A stretch of 64,000 bases of DNA from an uncultured Planctomycetota bacterium (GTDB lineage: Bacteria; Planctomycetota; PLA2; JAEUHO01): positions 64,001 to 128,000 of the forward strand of contig CAVVXN010000005.1 of the NCBI GenBank assembly GCA_963752285.1, written 5' to 3'. A model generated the notes under the pieces. That model saw only the letters and a program-made list of their open reading frames with translations. It was not told where the DNA came from and ran no database searches. Position 1 is the first letter of the stretch. Each line of letters begins with the position of its first letter. This document shows, one piece after another, positions 1 through 5,770 of the stretch. The position numbers and the translations under genes were made by a program.

Positions 1-1151
1 TGCGCCTCGAGCACGGAGCGGTCGTCGCCGGTGAACCGGATCGCGGGCGCGGTCCGGAGGTCGTCGGCCGCGGACACGGCCGCGGACGGCACGGCGGCCG
101 TCATCGCACGGACGAGATCCCCCGTCGCCGTGGGGTCCGCGGGCCCAAGGAGCACGCGGGCGAAGGTGCCGGCCAGGGGCTCCTCGTCCTTCCCGTCCTC
201 GACGATCACGATCGGCTGCGCGCGGTCCGAAGCCGTCTCCGCGACGGCGCGCCGTGCCGCCTCCAGGGCTCGTTCCTTCGACGTGCCGGCAGGGAACGCG
301 AGGCGGACCTCGTCCCACCGGTCGAGTAGCGCGAGGTCCACACCCGGCACCGGGGACGACCTCCGGAACGCGTCGAGCGCGCGGGCGACGCCCACCCGCG
401 CGACGCGGACGGCCTCCGACACGTGCACCGCGAACAGCACCGCGGGGCCGTTCGCGAGGCGGACCCAGCCGTCGTCGGTCGCGAGCGCTGTCCGGACCTC
501 CGCGACGTCTCGCACGCGCACGTCGGGCGCCACGACGACGTCGCCGAGGGCCTCCGGCGACGCGAGCGGCTCCGTGGGGCCGGTCGGGACCAAGGAGAGC
601 GCGTCGAGGACGCGCGCCCACGCGAGACCGCGCGCCGCGAGCCGCTCCGGCGAGACCACCACCTCGACCTCCGGCGTCGGGGCGCCGATCGGATCGACGC
701 GTCGGACGCCGGCAACGCGCGCGAGCGCCTCGCCGACCGCCTCGGTCGGCGCGACGAGGTCGGCAATCGTCCCGTCGCGCCGGAGGACGACGTAGAGCGT
801 CGCGGTCGGCCCCGCGTCGAGGAAGACCTCGACCTGGACGTTCGGGGGCAGGGCCGCGGCCGCCACCCGGTCGCGCACGGCGGCGAGGAGATCGGACGGG
901 CTCGCGGGGAAGGAGAGACGGAGGAACGCCGCGCCGTCGCGCGTGACGTCGTCGAGCGAGGCGAGCCCCGGGAGGTCCTTCAGCGCGGACTCGAGGGGGA
1001 GCACGCCCTGCATCTCGAGCGCCTCCGCCGTCGCCCCGGGCGCGCGGAGGCGGAGGACCACGCTCTCGGCCGCCGGTCCCGCTCGCGCCCGGCCGGCGGC
1101 GAGCGCGACGCCGAGGAGACTCGTTCCGAGGAGCAAGGCCTTCCGCCGCAT
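1..1151 (-). CDS. Secreted protein made of RND (AcrB/CusA-type) periplasmic porter/docking-like subdomains, no TM block in the visible part; 3' end runs off the window
   Basis: Not in the ORF track (no stop in window). My translation from ATG 1151: signal peptide MRRKALLLGTSLLGVALAAGRARA, then PGATAEALEMQGVLPLESALKDLPGL (PN1-like), RVAGVRRVDPIG..EVEVVVSPERLAARGL (PN2/DN-like), VRVRDVAEV, and LAFPAGTSKERA (PC1-like). Confidence 0.65.
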   Translation of the reverse strand, partial: MRRKALLLGTSLLGVALAAGRARAGPAAESVVLRLRAPGATAEALEMQGVLPLESALKDLPGLASLDDVTRDGAAFLRLSFPASPSDLLAAVRDRVAAAALPPNVQVEVFLDAGPTATLYVVLRRDGTIADLVAPTEAVGEALARVAGVRRVDPIGAPTPEVEVVVSPERLAARGLAWARVLDALSLVPTGPTEPLASPEALGDVVVAPDVRVRDVAEVRTALATDDGWVRLANGPAVLFAVHVSEAVRVARVGVARALDAFRRSSPVPGVDLALLDRWDEVRLAFPAGTSKERALEAARRAVAETASDRAQPIVIVEDGKDEEPLAGTFARVLLGPADPTATGDLVRAMTAAVPSAAVSAADDLRTAPAIRFTGDDRSVLEA

Positions 1152-1203: not shown

Positions 1204-2061
1204 ATGAAGCCCGGCGGCCTCGTCGTGCCGATCCTCCTCGCGGCGACCCTCGCCTTCGCCGTGCCCGAGGGCTGGCACACTTCGAGAAAGGACGGCCTCG
1301 CGGCCGCCACCACCAGCGGGAAGCCGCTCTTCCTCGTGACGCTCTGGCCCCCGAACGTGTGAGGGTCCTGCGACGCCTGGCGGAGCCGGGTGGAGACGGA
1401 CGAAGGGGTGGGGAAGGCCCTCTCGCGGTTCGAGTGCGTGGAGGAGGTCTACGACGGGCTTGGAGGGAACGTGATCGCCTGGACGAAGGCGCACGGAGGC
1501 ACGAGCGACGATCCCTCGGCGCAGGTCTTCGTGCTGGGCCGGGACGGCGCCTTCGTCGCGCGGGCGTCCGACGCGACCGCGCACGACCCGAAGGCCCTCG
1601 CGACCTGGCTCGGCGAGCAGTCGAAGGCGTACGAGCGGGCCCATCCGAAGACCGCGCTCCCCCTCGTTCGCGCCGAGGTCGCGATCGAGGGCCAGGGCGA
1701 GGACGAGAAGGCGGTGTGCGCGGCCCTCGACGACGCGAAGCGGCGGGGCGCGCCGGCCCTCCTCTACTTCGGGCGCGACGCGGCGCCCGCGGGCGACAGG
1801 AAGCTCGGGAAGGAGGTCGAGGCGTCGCAGAAGCTCGAGCGGGGCGCGCTCGACGCGAAGTCGGCGGCCCAGGCCGCGAAGGGCTGGGTGCTCCTGCGCT
1901 TCGACCTCGCGGACCCGACGCACGCGCGGCTCGCGAAGTCGTTCGGGGTCGGGGCGGCGCCGGACGTGGTGCTGGTGGTGCCGGGCGGGGACGCGCCGAT
2001 CGACCTCGGCGTCCCGAGCGCGGCGACGCTGTGCTACCGGTTGAAGAAGCACGCGCCCTGA
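1204..2061 (+). CDS. Secreted tandem thioredoxin-fold protein, probable selenoprotein (Sec at in-frame UGA 1360-1362, UxxC motif)
   Basis: ORFs 943-1362 and 1390-2061 share a frame. Read-through gives signal peptide + W..AAATTSGKPLFLVTLWPPNV-U-GSCDAW, the thioredoxin CxxC position. A second, Cys-motif-free Trx-like domain follows (GAPALLYF..WVLLRFD..FGVGAAPDVVLV). Confidence 0.75.
1363..1401 (+). promoter_or_regulatory. Putative bacterial SECIS element
   Basis: Hairpin CGCCTGGC-GGA-GCCGGGTG (1374-1392) with a G-first loop starting about 19 nt after the UGA; possible lower stem GTCC(1365-68)/GGAC(1398-1401). Confidence 0.55.
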
Positions 2062-2192
2062 ACGGCGCGGCGTCGGCCGAGACGGTCGGGCGTGCTCGGC
2101 TCCGGCGGGACCGCACGGCCGCCGGATCCCGGATTCGGGACGTCCCCTCGTGGCGTGGGAGAACAAAGCCCCGGACAGGAGACCCCGTCCCC

Positions 2193-2681
2193 ATGCACGA
2201 GCACGAGCCGCTCCCGGACTCCGTACGCGAGACCATCGACCTCTGGGTCTCGGACTTCGCCGAGCGTCCGGCCGCGGTGGAGCCCCTCGCGCGCGTGGGG
2301 ACGCACGGGCTCGAGGTCCTGGCCAGCTTCCTCGGGGCCGCGTGCCACGGCGGCGTGGAGCCGCCCGACATCGAGGGGGGAGAGGTCGCCCACGCGCTCC
2401 TCGACCACGTCGCGACCCTGGCGCTGCCGCCCGCGTCGCGCGACGCGGTGCCCGATCTCGTCGCGGCCTTCCTCGCCGACCTGGAGGAGGTCGGCCGGCT
2501 CTCGGGCGGGCGCGCGCTCGCGGCCCAGGTGCGCGCGACGGCGCCGGCCTACCGCGAACGTGCGTCCGGGCGTACCCACGTCGAGAAGCGGGTCGCGCCC
2601 AAGGTCGGCCGGAACGACCCCTGTCCCTGCGGGTCCGGGAAGAAGTACAAGCGCTGCTGCATGAACGCGCTGGACCGCTGA
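2193..2681 (+). CDS. SEC-C metal-binding motif protein
   Basis: C-terminal KVGRNDPCPCGSGKKYKRCC; AGGAG upstream of ATG 2193. Confidence 0.85.
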   Translation: MHEHEPLPDSVRETIDLWVSDFAERPAAVEPLARVGTHGLEVLASFLGAACHGGVEPPDIEGGEVAHALLDHVATLALPPASRDAVPDLVAAFLADLEEVGRLSGGRALAAQVRATAPAYRERASGRTHVEKRVAPKVGRNDPCPCGSGKKYKRCCMNALDR

Positions 2682-2709: not shown

Positions 2710-3258
2710 ATCTCCGCACCCGACGCATCCTCCGCGCGAGCGGCCGCCATCCGGGGCTACGTCTCGACGACCCTCGCGCTCCTCGGAGACGAGGATGCCG
2801 TCGAGGTCCTCGCGCGGACCCCCGTCCGCGTCGCCGCGCTGGTCGCGGACACGGAGCGCGCCGTCCTCGACCAGCCGGAGGCGCCGGGCAGGTGGTCGGT
2901 ACGCGAGGTCGTCGCGCACCTGGCGGACGTCGAGATCGCGTGGGCCTGGCGGCTCCGGCGCGTGCTGGCCGAGGACCGGCCGGCGCTGTCGGGCTTCGAC
3001 CAGGACCTCTGGTCCGCGCGCTTCCGCTACGCCGAAGCGCCGCTGGAGCCGAGCGTCCGGCTGCTCGTCACGCTCCGAGAGTCGAACGTCGCCTTGCTCC
3101 GGGATCTCCGGCCCGGCGACCTCGAACGGGTGGGCGTGCACGAGGAGCGCGGCCCCGAGAGCCTCGTGCGGATGATCGGCCTCTACGCGGGGCACGACCT
3201 CGTCCACCTGCGCCAGATCGACCGCATCCTGGCCGCCGCGGCGACCGGGAGCGCGTGA
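2710..3258 (+). CDS. DinB/YfiT-like metal-binding protein, probable ATC start
   Basis: Frame open upstream of ORF 2962, encoding PGRWSVREVVAHLADVE..RLRRVLAED.P.L.GFDQD.W..YAGHDLVHLRQI. GGAGG (2700-2704) lies 5 nt before ATC 2710. Confidence 0.8.
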   Translation: MSAPDASSARAAAIRGYVSTTLALLGDEDAVEVLARTPVRVAALVADTERAVLDQPEAPGRWSVREVVAHLADVEIAWAWRLRRVLAEDRPALSGFDQDLWSARFRYAEAPLEPSVRLLVTLRESNVALLRDLRPGDLERVGVHEERGPESLVRMIGLYAGHDLVHLRQIDRILAAAATGSA

Positions 3259-3430: not shown

Positions 3431-5770
3431 GTGACCGCATCGACCGTCTCCGTCGGGGCGTGGCGGGTGGGGGTGGCCCTCGCGCTGGCCGTCCTCGTCT
3501 CGGCGTCCGCCGCCGGGGACGACGCGCCGCGCCGCGCCGCGGGCTGGCGCCTTCCCGACGCCTCGCCCGACGCGATCCTCTTCTGGGCGGGCTCCGCAGC
3601 GCGGAAGATCCGACCCGACGAGGAGGTGCCCGAAGCGCGGTCCGAGGCCATGACGGTTCGGGCCGCGCGAAACGAGGTGGACGCCGTAGAGCTCGTGGTG
3701 CGGCCGGCGCGGGCGATCGACGGGTTCGTCGTGCGGGTGTCGGAGCTCGCACCGCCGACGGGGTCGCGCGCTTCTCCCGCACCCACCGTGGAGGTGCTCC
3801 GGGTCGCGACCGTGATCGTGACCACGCCGACCGACGAGAGCGCGTCGCCGGGCCCGTGGCCCGACCCGCTCCTCCCGATCGAGGGAGCGCTCTCGCTCCC
3901 GGCGGGCGGGAACCAGGCGTTCTGGCTGCGGGTGCACGTCCCGAAGTACGCGGCGGCCGGCACGTGGAGGGGCACGGTCGATCTCACGGCCCCGGGACTC
4001 GCGGCGCGCGTGCCCCTCCTCGTCACCGTCTACGACTTCACGCTGCCCGACCGTACGACGCTCCGCACGGCCTTCGGGTTCTCGGCCGGGGAGGTGATCC
4101 GGTACCACCGGCTGCGGACCCCCGAGGACCGGCGGCGCGTGGTGGACCTCTATCTCGACGACCTCGCGGCGCACCATCTCTCCCCGTACGACCCAGCTCC
4201 CCTCGACCCGATCCGCGTGACGTGGCCGAGCGTTTCCCCGCCGCGCTCCCCGTACGCCGACTGGACGAACGCGCGCATCGTCGGGAACGAGGTGCACACG
4301 GGGCATGGCGCCCTCCTCCTGTACGACGACCGTCCCGACGAGAACATGTCGGTCGGCTACGCGCCGCTCGTCACGATCCCGCCGGGCGGGTTTTACGTTT
4401 CCTTCTGGTACCGGACGGCCGTTCCGGGCGCGCGCTTCCTGCTCGCGATGGAGCACTTCGACGAGGCGAAGCGGTGGCTCTCGGGGCGGAACCTCGACAC
4501 CCTCGTCGAGGGCGACGGGACCTGGCAGCACTTCGAGGCCCGTGTCATCGAGTTCCCTCCGGGTGCGCGCTTCGTCCGCTTCCGCGCGTACGCGGCCCCG
4601 TGGACCGAGAAGGGGGAGGGCATCGGCCTCGTGTGGCTGGACGACGTGTCCGTCGAGGACCCCGACACCGGCGCCTCGCTCGTCCCGGGAGGCGACTTCG
4701 AGCCCGTCCGTCGGACGGAGACCGTCCTGCCGCCCGACCAGCTCGTGCCGCACTTCGACTTCGAAGCGTGGGACCGCGCGATGATGCGCGCCTTCCAGGC
4801 GCGCCACGTGAGCTCGTTTCGGGTGGACGTTCCCGGGCTCGGAAGCGGGACGTTCTTCGGCGCCCAGGCGCCCGGCCTGCTCGGGTTCGGTGAGGACACG
4901 CCCGAGTACCCTCTCCTCTTCGACGCGTACGTGAAGGGGGTCGAGGCCCACCTGCGCGAGAAAGGGTGGCTCGACGACGCCTATGTCTACTGGTTCGACG
5001 AGCCGGACCCTGCCCAGTACGAGCACGTGCGCAAGGGCTTCCTCAGGCTCCGGGGCGCGGCGCCGGGCCTTGCCGGCATGCTGACCGAGCAGGTCGAGGA
5101 CGCCCTCGTCGGCGGCCCGTCGATCTGGTGCTGCCTCACGCCGCGCTTCGACGCGACACGGGTCGCCGAACGCCAGCGGGCCGGCGAGCACGCCTGGTGG
5201 TACGTCTGCACGGCGCCCAAGGCCCCGTACGCGGGTCTGTTCCTCGACCACGCGGCGCCCGAGATGCGGGTCCTGCTCTGGCAGACGTGGAAGCGCCAGG
5301 TCGAGGGCCTCCTCGTCTGGCAAACGGACTACTGGACCAGCCCGACCGCGTACCCGGATCCCGGCGCGCCGCAGGACCCCTACGCGGACCCGATGAGCTG
5401 GACGACCGGCTACGGCGTGCCCGTGGGCACGCGACACCCGTGGGGGAACGGCGACGGCCGGTTCCTCTACCCGGCGCCCGGCGCGCGGCCCGACGCCTCC
5501 CAGCCGCCCGTGCTCGCCGGCCCCGTGGACTCGATCCGGATCGAGCAGCTCCGCGACGGCATCGAGGACTACGAGTACCTCGCCCTGCTCCGCCGGCGCC
5601 TCGCGGCGCGCGGCGCGTCGCTCTCCCCCGAAGACCGGGCGCGGTACGAGGCGCTCCTCGAGGTCCCGGCGTCGATCACCGAGTCGCTCACGCGCTTCAC
5701 GGACGACGGCGAGCCGATCGAACGCCGCCGCGACGAGATCGCGCGGGCCATCGAGGCCCTCTCCGACTGA
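3431..5770 (+). CDS. Secreted DUF4091 / GH123-like glycoside hydrolase with inserted CBM-like domain
   Basis: Signal peptide; AARNE N-domain; YWFDEP, WWYVC..P, WGNGDGRFLYP, GPVDSIRIEQLRDGIEDYEYL; inserted jelly-roll-like segment (WQHFEARV..VWLDDVSV..LVPGGDFE). Start could be 3395 or 3431. Confidence 0.7.
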   Translation: MTASTVSVGAWRVGVALALAVLVSASAAGDDAPRRAAGWRLPDASPDAILFWAGSAARKIRPDEEVPEARSEAMTVRAARNEVDAVELVVRPARAIDGFVVRVSELAPPTGSRASPAPTVEVLRVATVIVTTPTDESASPGPWPDPLLPIEGALSLPAGGNQAFWLRVHVPKYAAAGTWRGTVDLTAPGLAARVPLLVTVYDFTLPDRTTLRTAFGFSAGEVIRYHRLRTPEDRRRVVDLYLDDLAAHHLSPYDPAPLDPIRVTWPSVSPPRSPYADWTNARIVGNEVHTGHGALLLYDDRPDENMSVGYAPLVTIPPGGFYVSFWYRTAVPGARFLLAMEHFDEAKRWLSGRNLDTLVEGDGTWQHFEARVIEFPPGARFVRFRAYAAPWTEKGEGIGLVWLDDVSVEDPDTGASLVPGGDFEPVRRTETVLPPDQLVPHFDFEAWDRAMMRAFQARHVSSFRVDVPGLGSGTFFGAQAPGLLGFGEDTPEYPLLFDAYVKGVEAHLREKGWLDDAYVYWFDEPDPAQYEHVRKGFLRLRGAAPGLAGMLTEQVEDALVGGPSIWCCLTPRFDATRVAERQRAGEHAWWYVCTAPKAPYAGLFLDHAAPEMRVLLWQTWKRQVEGLLVWQTDYWTSPTAYPDPGAPQDPYADPMSWTTGYGVPVGTRHPWGNGDGRFLYPAPGARPDASQPPVLAGPVDSIRIEQLRDGIEDYEYLALLRRRLAARGASLSPEDRARYEALLEVPASITESLTRFTDDGEPIERRRDEIARAIEALSD

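Follow-up and report, generated by a model that had tools for sequence, protein, structure and literature searches.

The 64,000-nucleotide stretch analyzed here, referred to as the window, comes from an uncultured Planctomycetota genome (G000) and carries near its start a single gene that two same-frame ORFs conceal. An ATG at 1204, a TGA at 1360–1362 and a TGA stop at 2059–2061 all share one frame, and reading through the internal UGA gives a 285-residue protein with KPLFLVTLWPPNV-U53-G-S-C56 around the UGA. The ORF list holds two pieces in this frame, one ending at 1362 and the other covering 1390–2061, and database entries carry the gene in the same divided form as P0116 (67 aa) and P0019 (223 aa), which bears out the first-pass annotation in its claims of a TGA-split ORF pair with a U-G-S-C motif and of a gene broken up by standard gene callers. 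The features of the locus and its neighborhood are as follows.

1204–2061, plus strand: full gene, 285 aa with UGA 1360–1362 as selenocysteine, supported by alignment over its whole length with 14 TGA homologs and 13 Cys proteins
1204–1260, plus strand: predicted signal peptide, residues 1–19 ending A-F-A, cleavage site placed by eye; a hydrophobic N terminus is common to 26 of 26 aligned members
1267–1644, plus strand: domain 1, residues 22–147, predicted thioredoxin fold with UxxC, from the AlphaFold model and structural and PF13899 matches
1360–1362, plus strand: in-frame UGA, putative selenocysteine 53, at the start of helix 54–62 (helix limits from the AlphaFold model); the codon is TGA in 57 of the 62 distinct loci and TGC/TGT in the other 5
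1369–1371, plus strand: Cys56, putative resolving cysteine, invariant in family alignments
1374–1392, plus strand: SECIS-type hairpin of the bacterial kind with 8 pairs, its apical GGA loop 19 nt past the UGA, from folding, the consensus model, wobble constraint and pair counts
1513–1515, plus strand: Pro104 of D-P-S, putative cis-proline loop of domain 1, invariant and aligned with Pro253 of domain 2
1654–2055, plus strand: domain 2, residues 151–284, predicted thioredoxin fold without CxxC, from a 1vrs match, a domain-1 profile match and DsbD-gamma sequence matches
3–1151, minus strand: divergent AcrB-family protein (neighbor)
2193–2681, plus strand: SEC-C motif protein (neighbor)
2716–3258, plus strand: DinB-family protein (neighbor)
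3467–5770, plus strand: GH123 glycoside hydrolase (neighbor)

We infer the start at 1204 from the homologs and from the signal-peptide-like stretch that follows it; no clear ribosome-binding site was found before this ATG, and an alternative in-frame ATG lies 15 codons upstream. A search of the gene for promoter-like sites found none, and a single terminator-like hairpin lies on the opposite strand over the end of the gene (2052–2069, minus strand; 0.2 expected by chance). None of the neighbors in the window is conserved beside the gene in relatives. Two lineage-specific gene orders surround the family gene, with no neighbor common to families and no operon found, so gene context gives no support for a partner.

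The nucleotides of the internal codon recur in independent sequence. Metagenome contig L128, an independent assembly with 96% protein identity, is identical over the 75 nt around the UGA, and a contig of run X5 spans 1324–1556 with 0 differences to the window; run X1 also covers the codon (14 differences in all) and was left out of the support count. Because both contigs agree with the window here and TGA occupies the same codon in 57 distinct homologous loci, a sequencing error, which the first-pass annotation had proposed to recognize by TGC or TGT in reads, does not explain the codon. Searching with the single protein gave a match in 17 of 40 genomes of the class (the match in G001 being a domain-2 fusion only), and an alignment search matched 29 genomes, four of these weakly, in a phylum sample of 401; a first scan of genome contigs with the single protein as query had given no match. 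Among 20 titled records, 19 are labeled Planctomycetota or one of its groups and one is labeled uncultured bacterium. We pooled the 29 genome loci, 2 of the 20 titled-record loci (the rest seemed repeats), 40 metagenome loci and L061, removed 5 duplicates and 5 loci without the motif by pattern (four with domain 2 only, and L061, which has TGA), and excluded as members the weak matches in G040, G172 and G325 and the G001 domain-2 peptidase fusion.

Across the resulting 62 distinct family loci, the codon at the selenocysteine site is TGA in 57, TGC or TGT in 5 and any other codon in 0; the first-pass annotation had asked for conserved Cys or TGA here, with tryptophan or another non-Cys residue as the refuting case, and tryptophan is absent. 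The 57 TGA loci come from many genera and retain 40–50% protein identity on both sides of the TGA. At the protein level, 31 short library proteins stop exactly before the selenocysteine residue and many others begin approximately 12 residues further on, and CxxC occupies the site in 15 full-length relatives, whose codons are mostly unseen; the exceptions are SxxC in one distant relative and Arg in one chimeric-looking protein. Dozens of public proteins are N- or C-terminal halves of this family's gene, and joining them repairs a systematic annotation error. The gene of G317 (L060/L085) keeps its TGA and UxxC and is frameshifted shortly afterward, through either an assembly error or decay.

The source genome contains the full machinery for selenocysteine insertion, with selA (433 bits), selB (317), selD (356) and a tRNA-Sec with anticodon UCA all over cut-off, and its selD itself has an in-frame TGA. 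All components that the first-pass annotation had wanted checked are present, and its proposed objection that the genome might lack them failed. The gene selA is present in 38 of 40 genomes of the class, and 14 further genomes that carry the family have selA in 13 and tRNA-Sec in 13, with at least one of the two in each. TGA is also the main stop codon of G000 (995 of 1,328 seed genes) and so is not reassigned to tryptophan, and this together with homologs that lack tryptophan at the site ruled out TGA recoding as Trp. A reading of the locus as a pseudogene or two small genes, in which the TGA would be a genuine stop, an error of sequencing or a codon for Trp, could appeal to hairpins that commonly follow TGA by chance in G000, to two in-frame TGAs of the same genome (L098 and L099) in what look like broken genes, and to the one frameshifted homolog in G317. 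That reading is very improbable, as the TGA holds the same codon in 57 loci whose identity extends to both sides, the alternative residue at the site is Cys, the use of TGA as main stop excludes Trp reassignment, and in the predicted model the break would cut one fold in two. We consider it very likely that UGA 1360–1362 is read through as selenocysteine.

We next examined the hairpin behind the UGA. The stem CGCCUGGC-GGA-GCCGGGUG at 1374–1392 begins 11 nt after the UGA, where a SECIS-like element had been claimed. The bacterial SECIS consensus has a loop of 3–9 nt, a stem of 4–16 bp, a G in the first two loop positions, a spacing of 16–37 nt and an energy of −7.5 or lower (PMC13188914), and the hairpin falls within all five ranges with a loop of 3, a stem of 8 bp, GGA, a spacing of 19 and −13.6 to −22.7 kcal/mol. 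A 51-nt segment folds at −22.7 kcal/mol (z −2.5), an energy that 1 of 200 shuffles equaled; in an 81-nt segment the folding signal is gone (z −0.05), and an Rfam search with the hairpin gave no match. As a chance control we used all 58,961 TGA triplets of the 73%-GC genome, of which 10.1% have a hairpin of at least 6 pairs with a G loop 16–25 nt downstream and 1,101 (1.9%) have at least 8 pairs. Since 1.9% of genomic TGAs have a hairpin as long by chance, the hairpin taken alone is weak evidence and not decisive.

Comparison across the family indicates strong constraint on the wobble bases of the hairpin. Synonymous recoding of the source gene alone gave p 0.04 for energy and p 0.19 for stem length. 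Over the 57 selenocysteine loci, third codon positions compared to family usage have C at +5 in 53 (20.7 expected), T at +7 in 42 (3.8 expected), C at +8 in 57 (37.1 expected) and G at +9 in 51 (38.2 expected). For the Arg in the loop, CGT is used in 42 of 55 cases, compared to 47 of 731 elsewhere, and CGT or CGG in 51 of 55, compared to 31.5% elsewhere; these codons yield the G[G/U] of the SECIS consensus. Over 55 aligned sites, pairing holds in 85.7% of stem cells and both sides have changed in 4 of the 7 pairs, values reached by 1 and 3 of 500 shuffles respectively and inflated by related sequences, and covariation on the first 15 sequences was not above shuffles. At the hairpin register 41 of 57 selenocysteine loci reach −7.5 kcal/mol and some fold poorly. 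The wobble bases of the hairpin are fixed beyond what coding requires, which points to selection on the hairpin itself. The Cys genes failed as a negative control: a hairpin at −7.5 kcal/mol or lower occurs in 4 of 5, the Cys and Sec groups do not differ in folding (mean z −0.99 compared to −1.13, Mann–Whitney p 0.36), and the CGT loop codon occurs in 2 of 4 Cys and 42 of 55 Sec genes (Fisher p 0.27).

To describe the protein we modeled it in AlphaFold2 with Cys in place of Sec, giving a mean pLDDT of 89.2 and two alpha/beta domains behind a disordered segment (residues 1–21, pLDDT <50). The model places U53–C56 at the start of helix 54–62. Domain 1 superposes on 3f9u (VIA Z 14.3, rmsd 2.3, 119 aligned) and matches PF13899 (Thioredoxin_7) at E 5e-6 and 26.9 bits, next to a gathering cut-off of 27 that the Cys relatives P0021 (30.6) and P0052 (32.9) exceed, with 16 of 16 members matching at E up to 0.1. 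Its invariant residues are T46, W48, U/C53, C56, W59, Y83, G88, W93, G98 and P104. Domain 2 superposes on the E. coli DsbD C-terminal domain 1vrs (VIA Z 13.0, rmsd 2.3, 112 aligned), matches the domain 1 profile weakly (E 3e-4, probability 41%) and has weak sequence matches to DsbD-gamma. Further weak sequence matches are to TXNDC12 and AGR2, and the ESM Atlas returned only generic thioredoxin-like clusters (0.91–0.93). The AlphaFold model and VIA matches support the two-domain thioredoxin-like architecture that had been proposed, with UxxC in domain 1 only. Export, also claimed earlier, stands as a prediction from sequence features: the hydrophobic start in all 26 aligned members, none of which has a lipobox, suggests a protein exported through a signal-peptide-like N terminus.

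Both domains occur in other combinations. A second architecture joins the same TGA-containing domain to a helical lysine-rich C-terminal domain, often with CxxCR (L061/L087 of G104, L063 of G140, P0080, P0081, P0084, P0086, P0092, P0098 and P0099), and this helical domain weakly resembles the C-terminal part of a TlpA-like selenoprotein of G000 (33% over 51 aa, E 3e-4). The cysteine-less domain 2 is also fused behind a putative zinc metallopeptidase that is Peptidase_Mx1-like (L037/L064 of G001, P0089, P0094 and P0097). Domain 1 and domain 2 are mobile modules.

We favor, as reasonably probable, one gene with selenocysteine at the UGA whose exported product has two thioredoxin folds and likely acts as a periplasmic disulfide reductase or isomerase. 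The fold itself leaves the direction of electron flow unfixed. The residue preceding the putative cis-Pro is Asp or His, unlike the Val or Thr typical of DsbA proteins (PMC5193440), so the substrate may be special. The structural neighbors, the GPC-like dipeptides and the lack of a DsbB match in G000 favor a reducing role: the two residues between U and C are mostly x-Pro or x-Ser, resembling those of GPC-type thioredoxins (UAPC 13, UNPC 8, USPC 7 and UGSC 7 of 57 Sec loci), a DsbD-type gene is present in G000, and DsbB was not found in this genome, which is 89% complete and makes the absence weak evidence. The structural neighbor DsbH is described as contributing to a reducing periplasm (PMC5193440). 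That the enzyme is fed by DsbD in such a role is moderately probable. In the mechanism we propose, SelB with tRNA-Sec would recognize the hairpin 11 nt past the UGA to insert Sec53, and the predicted signal peptide would export the protein. The Sec53 selenolate would then attack a substrate disulfide and Cys56 would resolve the intermediate, leaving a selenenyl-sulfide as in the thioredoxin UxxC mechanism, and the DsbD-family membrane protein encoded in G000 could re-reduce the selenoprotein. By analogy with the non-catalytic domains of protein disulfide isomerase, the cysteine-less second fold may hold substrates.

An unlikely alternative to a general disulfide-repair enzyme is a selenoprotein dedicated to a single partner, to which it would donate electrons or for which it would act as redox sensor; exported Sec peroxiredoxins and a step of cytochrome c maturation are examples of such a partner. 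A long conserved aromatic loop, YDGLxGKIIxWT, and the unusual D/H-Pro motif suggest one fixed partner. G000 also encodes exported Sec peroxiredoxin-like proteins, the top structural match is one domain from a protein related to cytochrome c biogenesis, and one family has a cytochrome c gene, on the same strand, at a distance of two genes. Against these points, no neighbor is common to families, and the occurrence of domain 1 with the other helical C-terminal domain and of domain 2 in fusion with the putative metallopeptidase fits interchangeable modules better than one partner. Still less probable is a dithiol oxidase that introduces disulfides as a DsbA substitute. An exported thioredoxin fold without a conventional DsbB partner found makes an unusual oxidative route conceivable, but in structure the protein is closest to the DsbD C-terminal domain, DsbH and thioredoxins, and the predicted model lacks the DsbA-type helical insert. 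A selenenyl-sulfide is, in addition, generally more reducing than the corresponding disulfide. The disulfide reductase or isomerase remains our preferred assignment.

Scanning G000 with a simple, non-exhaustive coding score for other in-frame UGAs, as had been suggested, revealed eight further plausible selenoprotein genes with UGA and hairpin: SelD, a SelW/Rdx protein, an HMA protein, a TUGYCR-family protein (over the NCBIfam cut-off), two TlpA-like proteins, a Prx-like protein and a BCP-like protein. These candidates (L089–L095 and L018) lie on contigs C1, C2, C4 and C5, six look exported, and two are 2.5 kb apart on C4. With the family gene included, 7 of the 9 putative selenoproteins found in G000 have a signal or lipoprotein start by eye. 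Possible extra selenoproteins with an in-frame TGA after signal-like sequence are found at G000:C3:484621 (plus strand, G-U-C-G-G), C1:493442 (minus strand, G-G-C-U-G) and C3:40059 (minus strand, N-U-C). Four in-frame TGA candidates, L096–L099, were excluded as selenoproteins; among them L098 (G000:C2:87680) is a repeat protein with a PEP-CTERM-like end and L099 (G000:C5:2170535) a terminase-like ORF, and both have no redox motif and look broken. A Sec formate dehydrogenase was not seen in G000, where both molybdopterin matches are without internal stops, and the genome has three heme-copper oxidase subunit I matches. These findings suggest an exported selenoproteome in Planctomycetota, a phylum that a term search did not find in the main text of the 2026 review (PMC13188914).

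The family also has members with cysteine in place of selenocysteine. On a 39-row tree, in which 12 of 16 Cys rows are database proteins with Cys read at the protein level, the distribution of Sec and Cys requires 7 changes of state, of which well-supported branches impose at least 5, and the family has likely switched several times between the two residues. Six genomes of one family share the chromosomal position of the gene, which codes for Sec in three of them and for Cys in the other three. One genome, G125, has a Cys copy at this shared position and, at another location, a Sec copy whose grouping with a gene of the window's class (99/97) suggests transfer. Deep branches of the tree are unresolved, and the tree leaves the direction of change unset. 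Sec-to-Cys reversion fits the hairpins that Cys genes retain and the rare CGT codon seen in 2 of 4 of them; repeated gain of Sec from Cys, on a hairpin already formed by the T-W-R-x-Q/R-V codons, fits as well. More tentatively, planctomycetes with heme-copper oxidases might run an extracytoplasmic selenium redox network that includes a PDI-like protein, with several Sec-to-Cys reversions leaving fossil SECIS hairpins. If true, this network and these reversions would contrast with the 2026 review, where Sec-to-Cys changes are described as rare among bacteria and selenoproteins as rare among aerobes (PMC13188914). With Sec and Cys versions that are syntenic, both present in one genome, and a hairpin kept in some Cys genes, the family forms a compact natural test of the benefit of Sec to a thioredoxin-fold enzyme and of the direction of bacterial Sec/Cys swaps.

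Finally, we compared the family to known systems. Thioredoxin_7 is the only Pfam match, at about its cut-off, and NCBIfam 20.0 has no model at cut-off for the source protein, 15 other members or further Cys relatives. The nearest selenoprotein family is Trx7/PDZ (NF041199), which shares a Thioredoxin_7-type first domain starting W...G...A..SGKP, an active-site Sec and a signal-like N terminus, and which exceeds its cut-off in 28 of 40 genomes of the class. Yet the two are distinct genes of the same genomes: the source protein scores 12.5 bits compared to a cut-off of 300 for the 390-position model and matches positions 2–58 only, similarity is confined to approximately 57 residues (best family member E 1.3e-5), no PDZ match was found in 16 members, the second domain of the source protein is a predicted thioredoxin fold, the motif is UxxC and not CxxU or UxxU, and genomes such as G008 and G019 have both families as separate genes. 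The NF041199 family is listed as CxxU with one Sec (PMC13188914). Its matches in G019 (L124) and G008 (L126) read U-E-P-U, two Sec codons three codons apart with apparently one hairpin, and many genomes of the class have two TGAs within the NF041199 match.

Other UxxC thioredoxin-fold selenoproteins in the 119-family table of PMC13188914 likewise have Sec first in UxxC, a SECIS right after the UGA and Cys homologs. Such classes are thioredoxin (PF00085), thiol:disulfide interchange protein (PF13098), thiol-disulfide isomerase-like (cd02966), Redoxin, SaoT, HUIPC and VPGUxxT (PMC13188914). The present family differs in having no model at cut-off among those tested, with PF13098 weak in 5 of 16 members (best E 0.004) and the VPGUxxT types matching 3 and 1 of 16 and TsoB 2 of 16, all below cut-off, and its tandem of a catalytic and a cysteine-less fold is unnamed in that table. 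Structural neighbors share the fold, with Z 14.3 for 3f9u, 13.0 for 1vrs, 12.2 for Chlamydia DsbH (2ju5), 12.1 for UAS and 11.6 for AGR3, but identity is 11–21% and these proteins are Cys-based and either single domains or parts of membrane proteins; a fold shared with the DsbD C-terminal domain, DsbH, ERp19/AGR2 and UAS establishes no function. The a–b pair of protein disulfide isomerase offers the same order of a catalytic and then a non-catalytic thioredoxin fold in an exported protein, but whole-model superposition is poor (rmsd 11–12 Å against ERdj5 and PDI fragments), making this likeness an analogy and not a homology of arrangement. As to DsbA-type oxidases, the model lacks their helical insert and DsbB, their partner, is unmatched in the 89% complete genome, while the list of fold matches does not serve to exclude a family.

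A literature search found no description of this tandem-thioredoxin selenoprotein family. Two "thiol-disulfide isomerase-like thioredoxin" candidates without SECIS were given, without sequence, for another planctomycete (PMC4807772); BSepDB was built from previously reported families (PMC13326102), and deep-Sep corresponds to PMC12013277. The suggestion that the family is undescribed holds for Pfam, NCBIfam 20.0 and the 119-family table, and a broad class in CDD, the BSepDB table or the lists of Haft and Tolstoy 2025 or Deng et al. 2026 could include it. The chemistry itself is commonplace, which limits the surprise. UxxC thioredoxin folds are the commonest kind of selenoprotein, and within this kind the sequences point to a new architecture without a curated model that adds a family to the bacterial selenoprotein catalogue.
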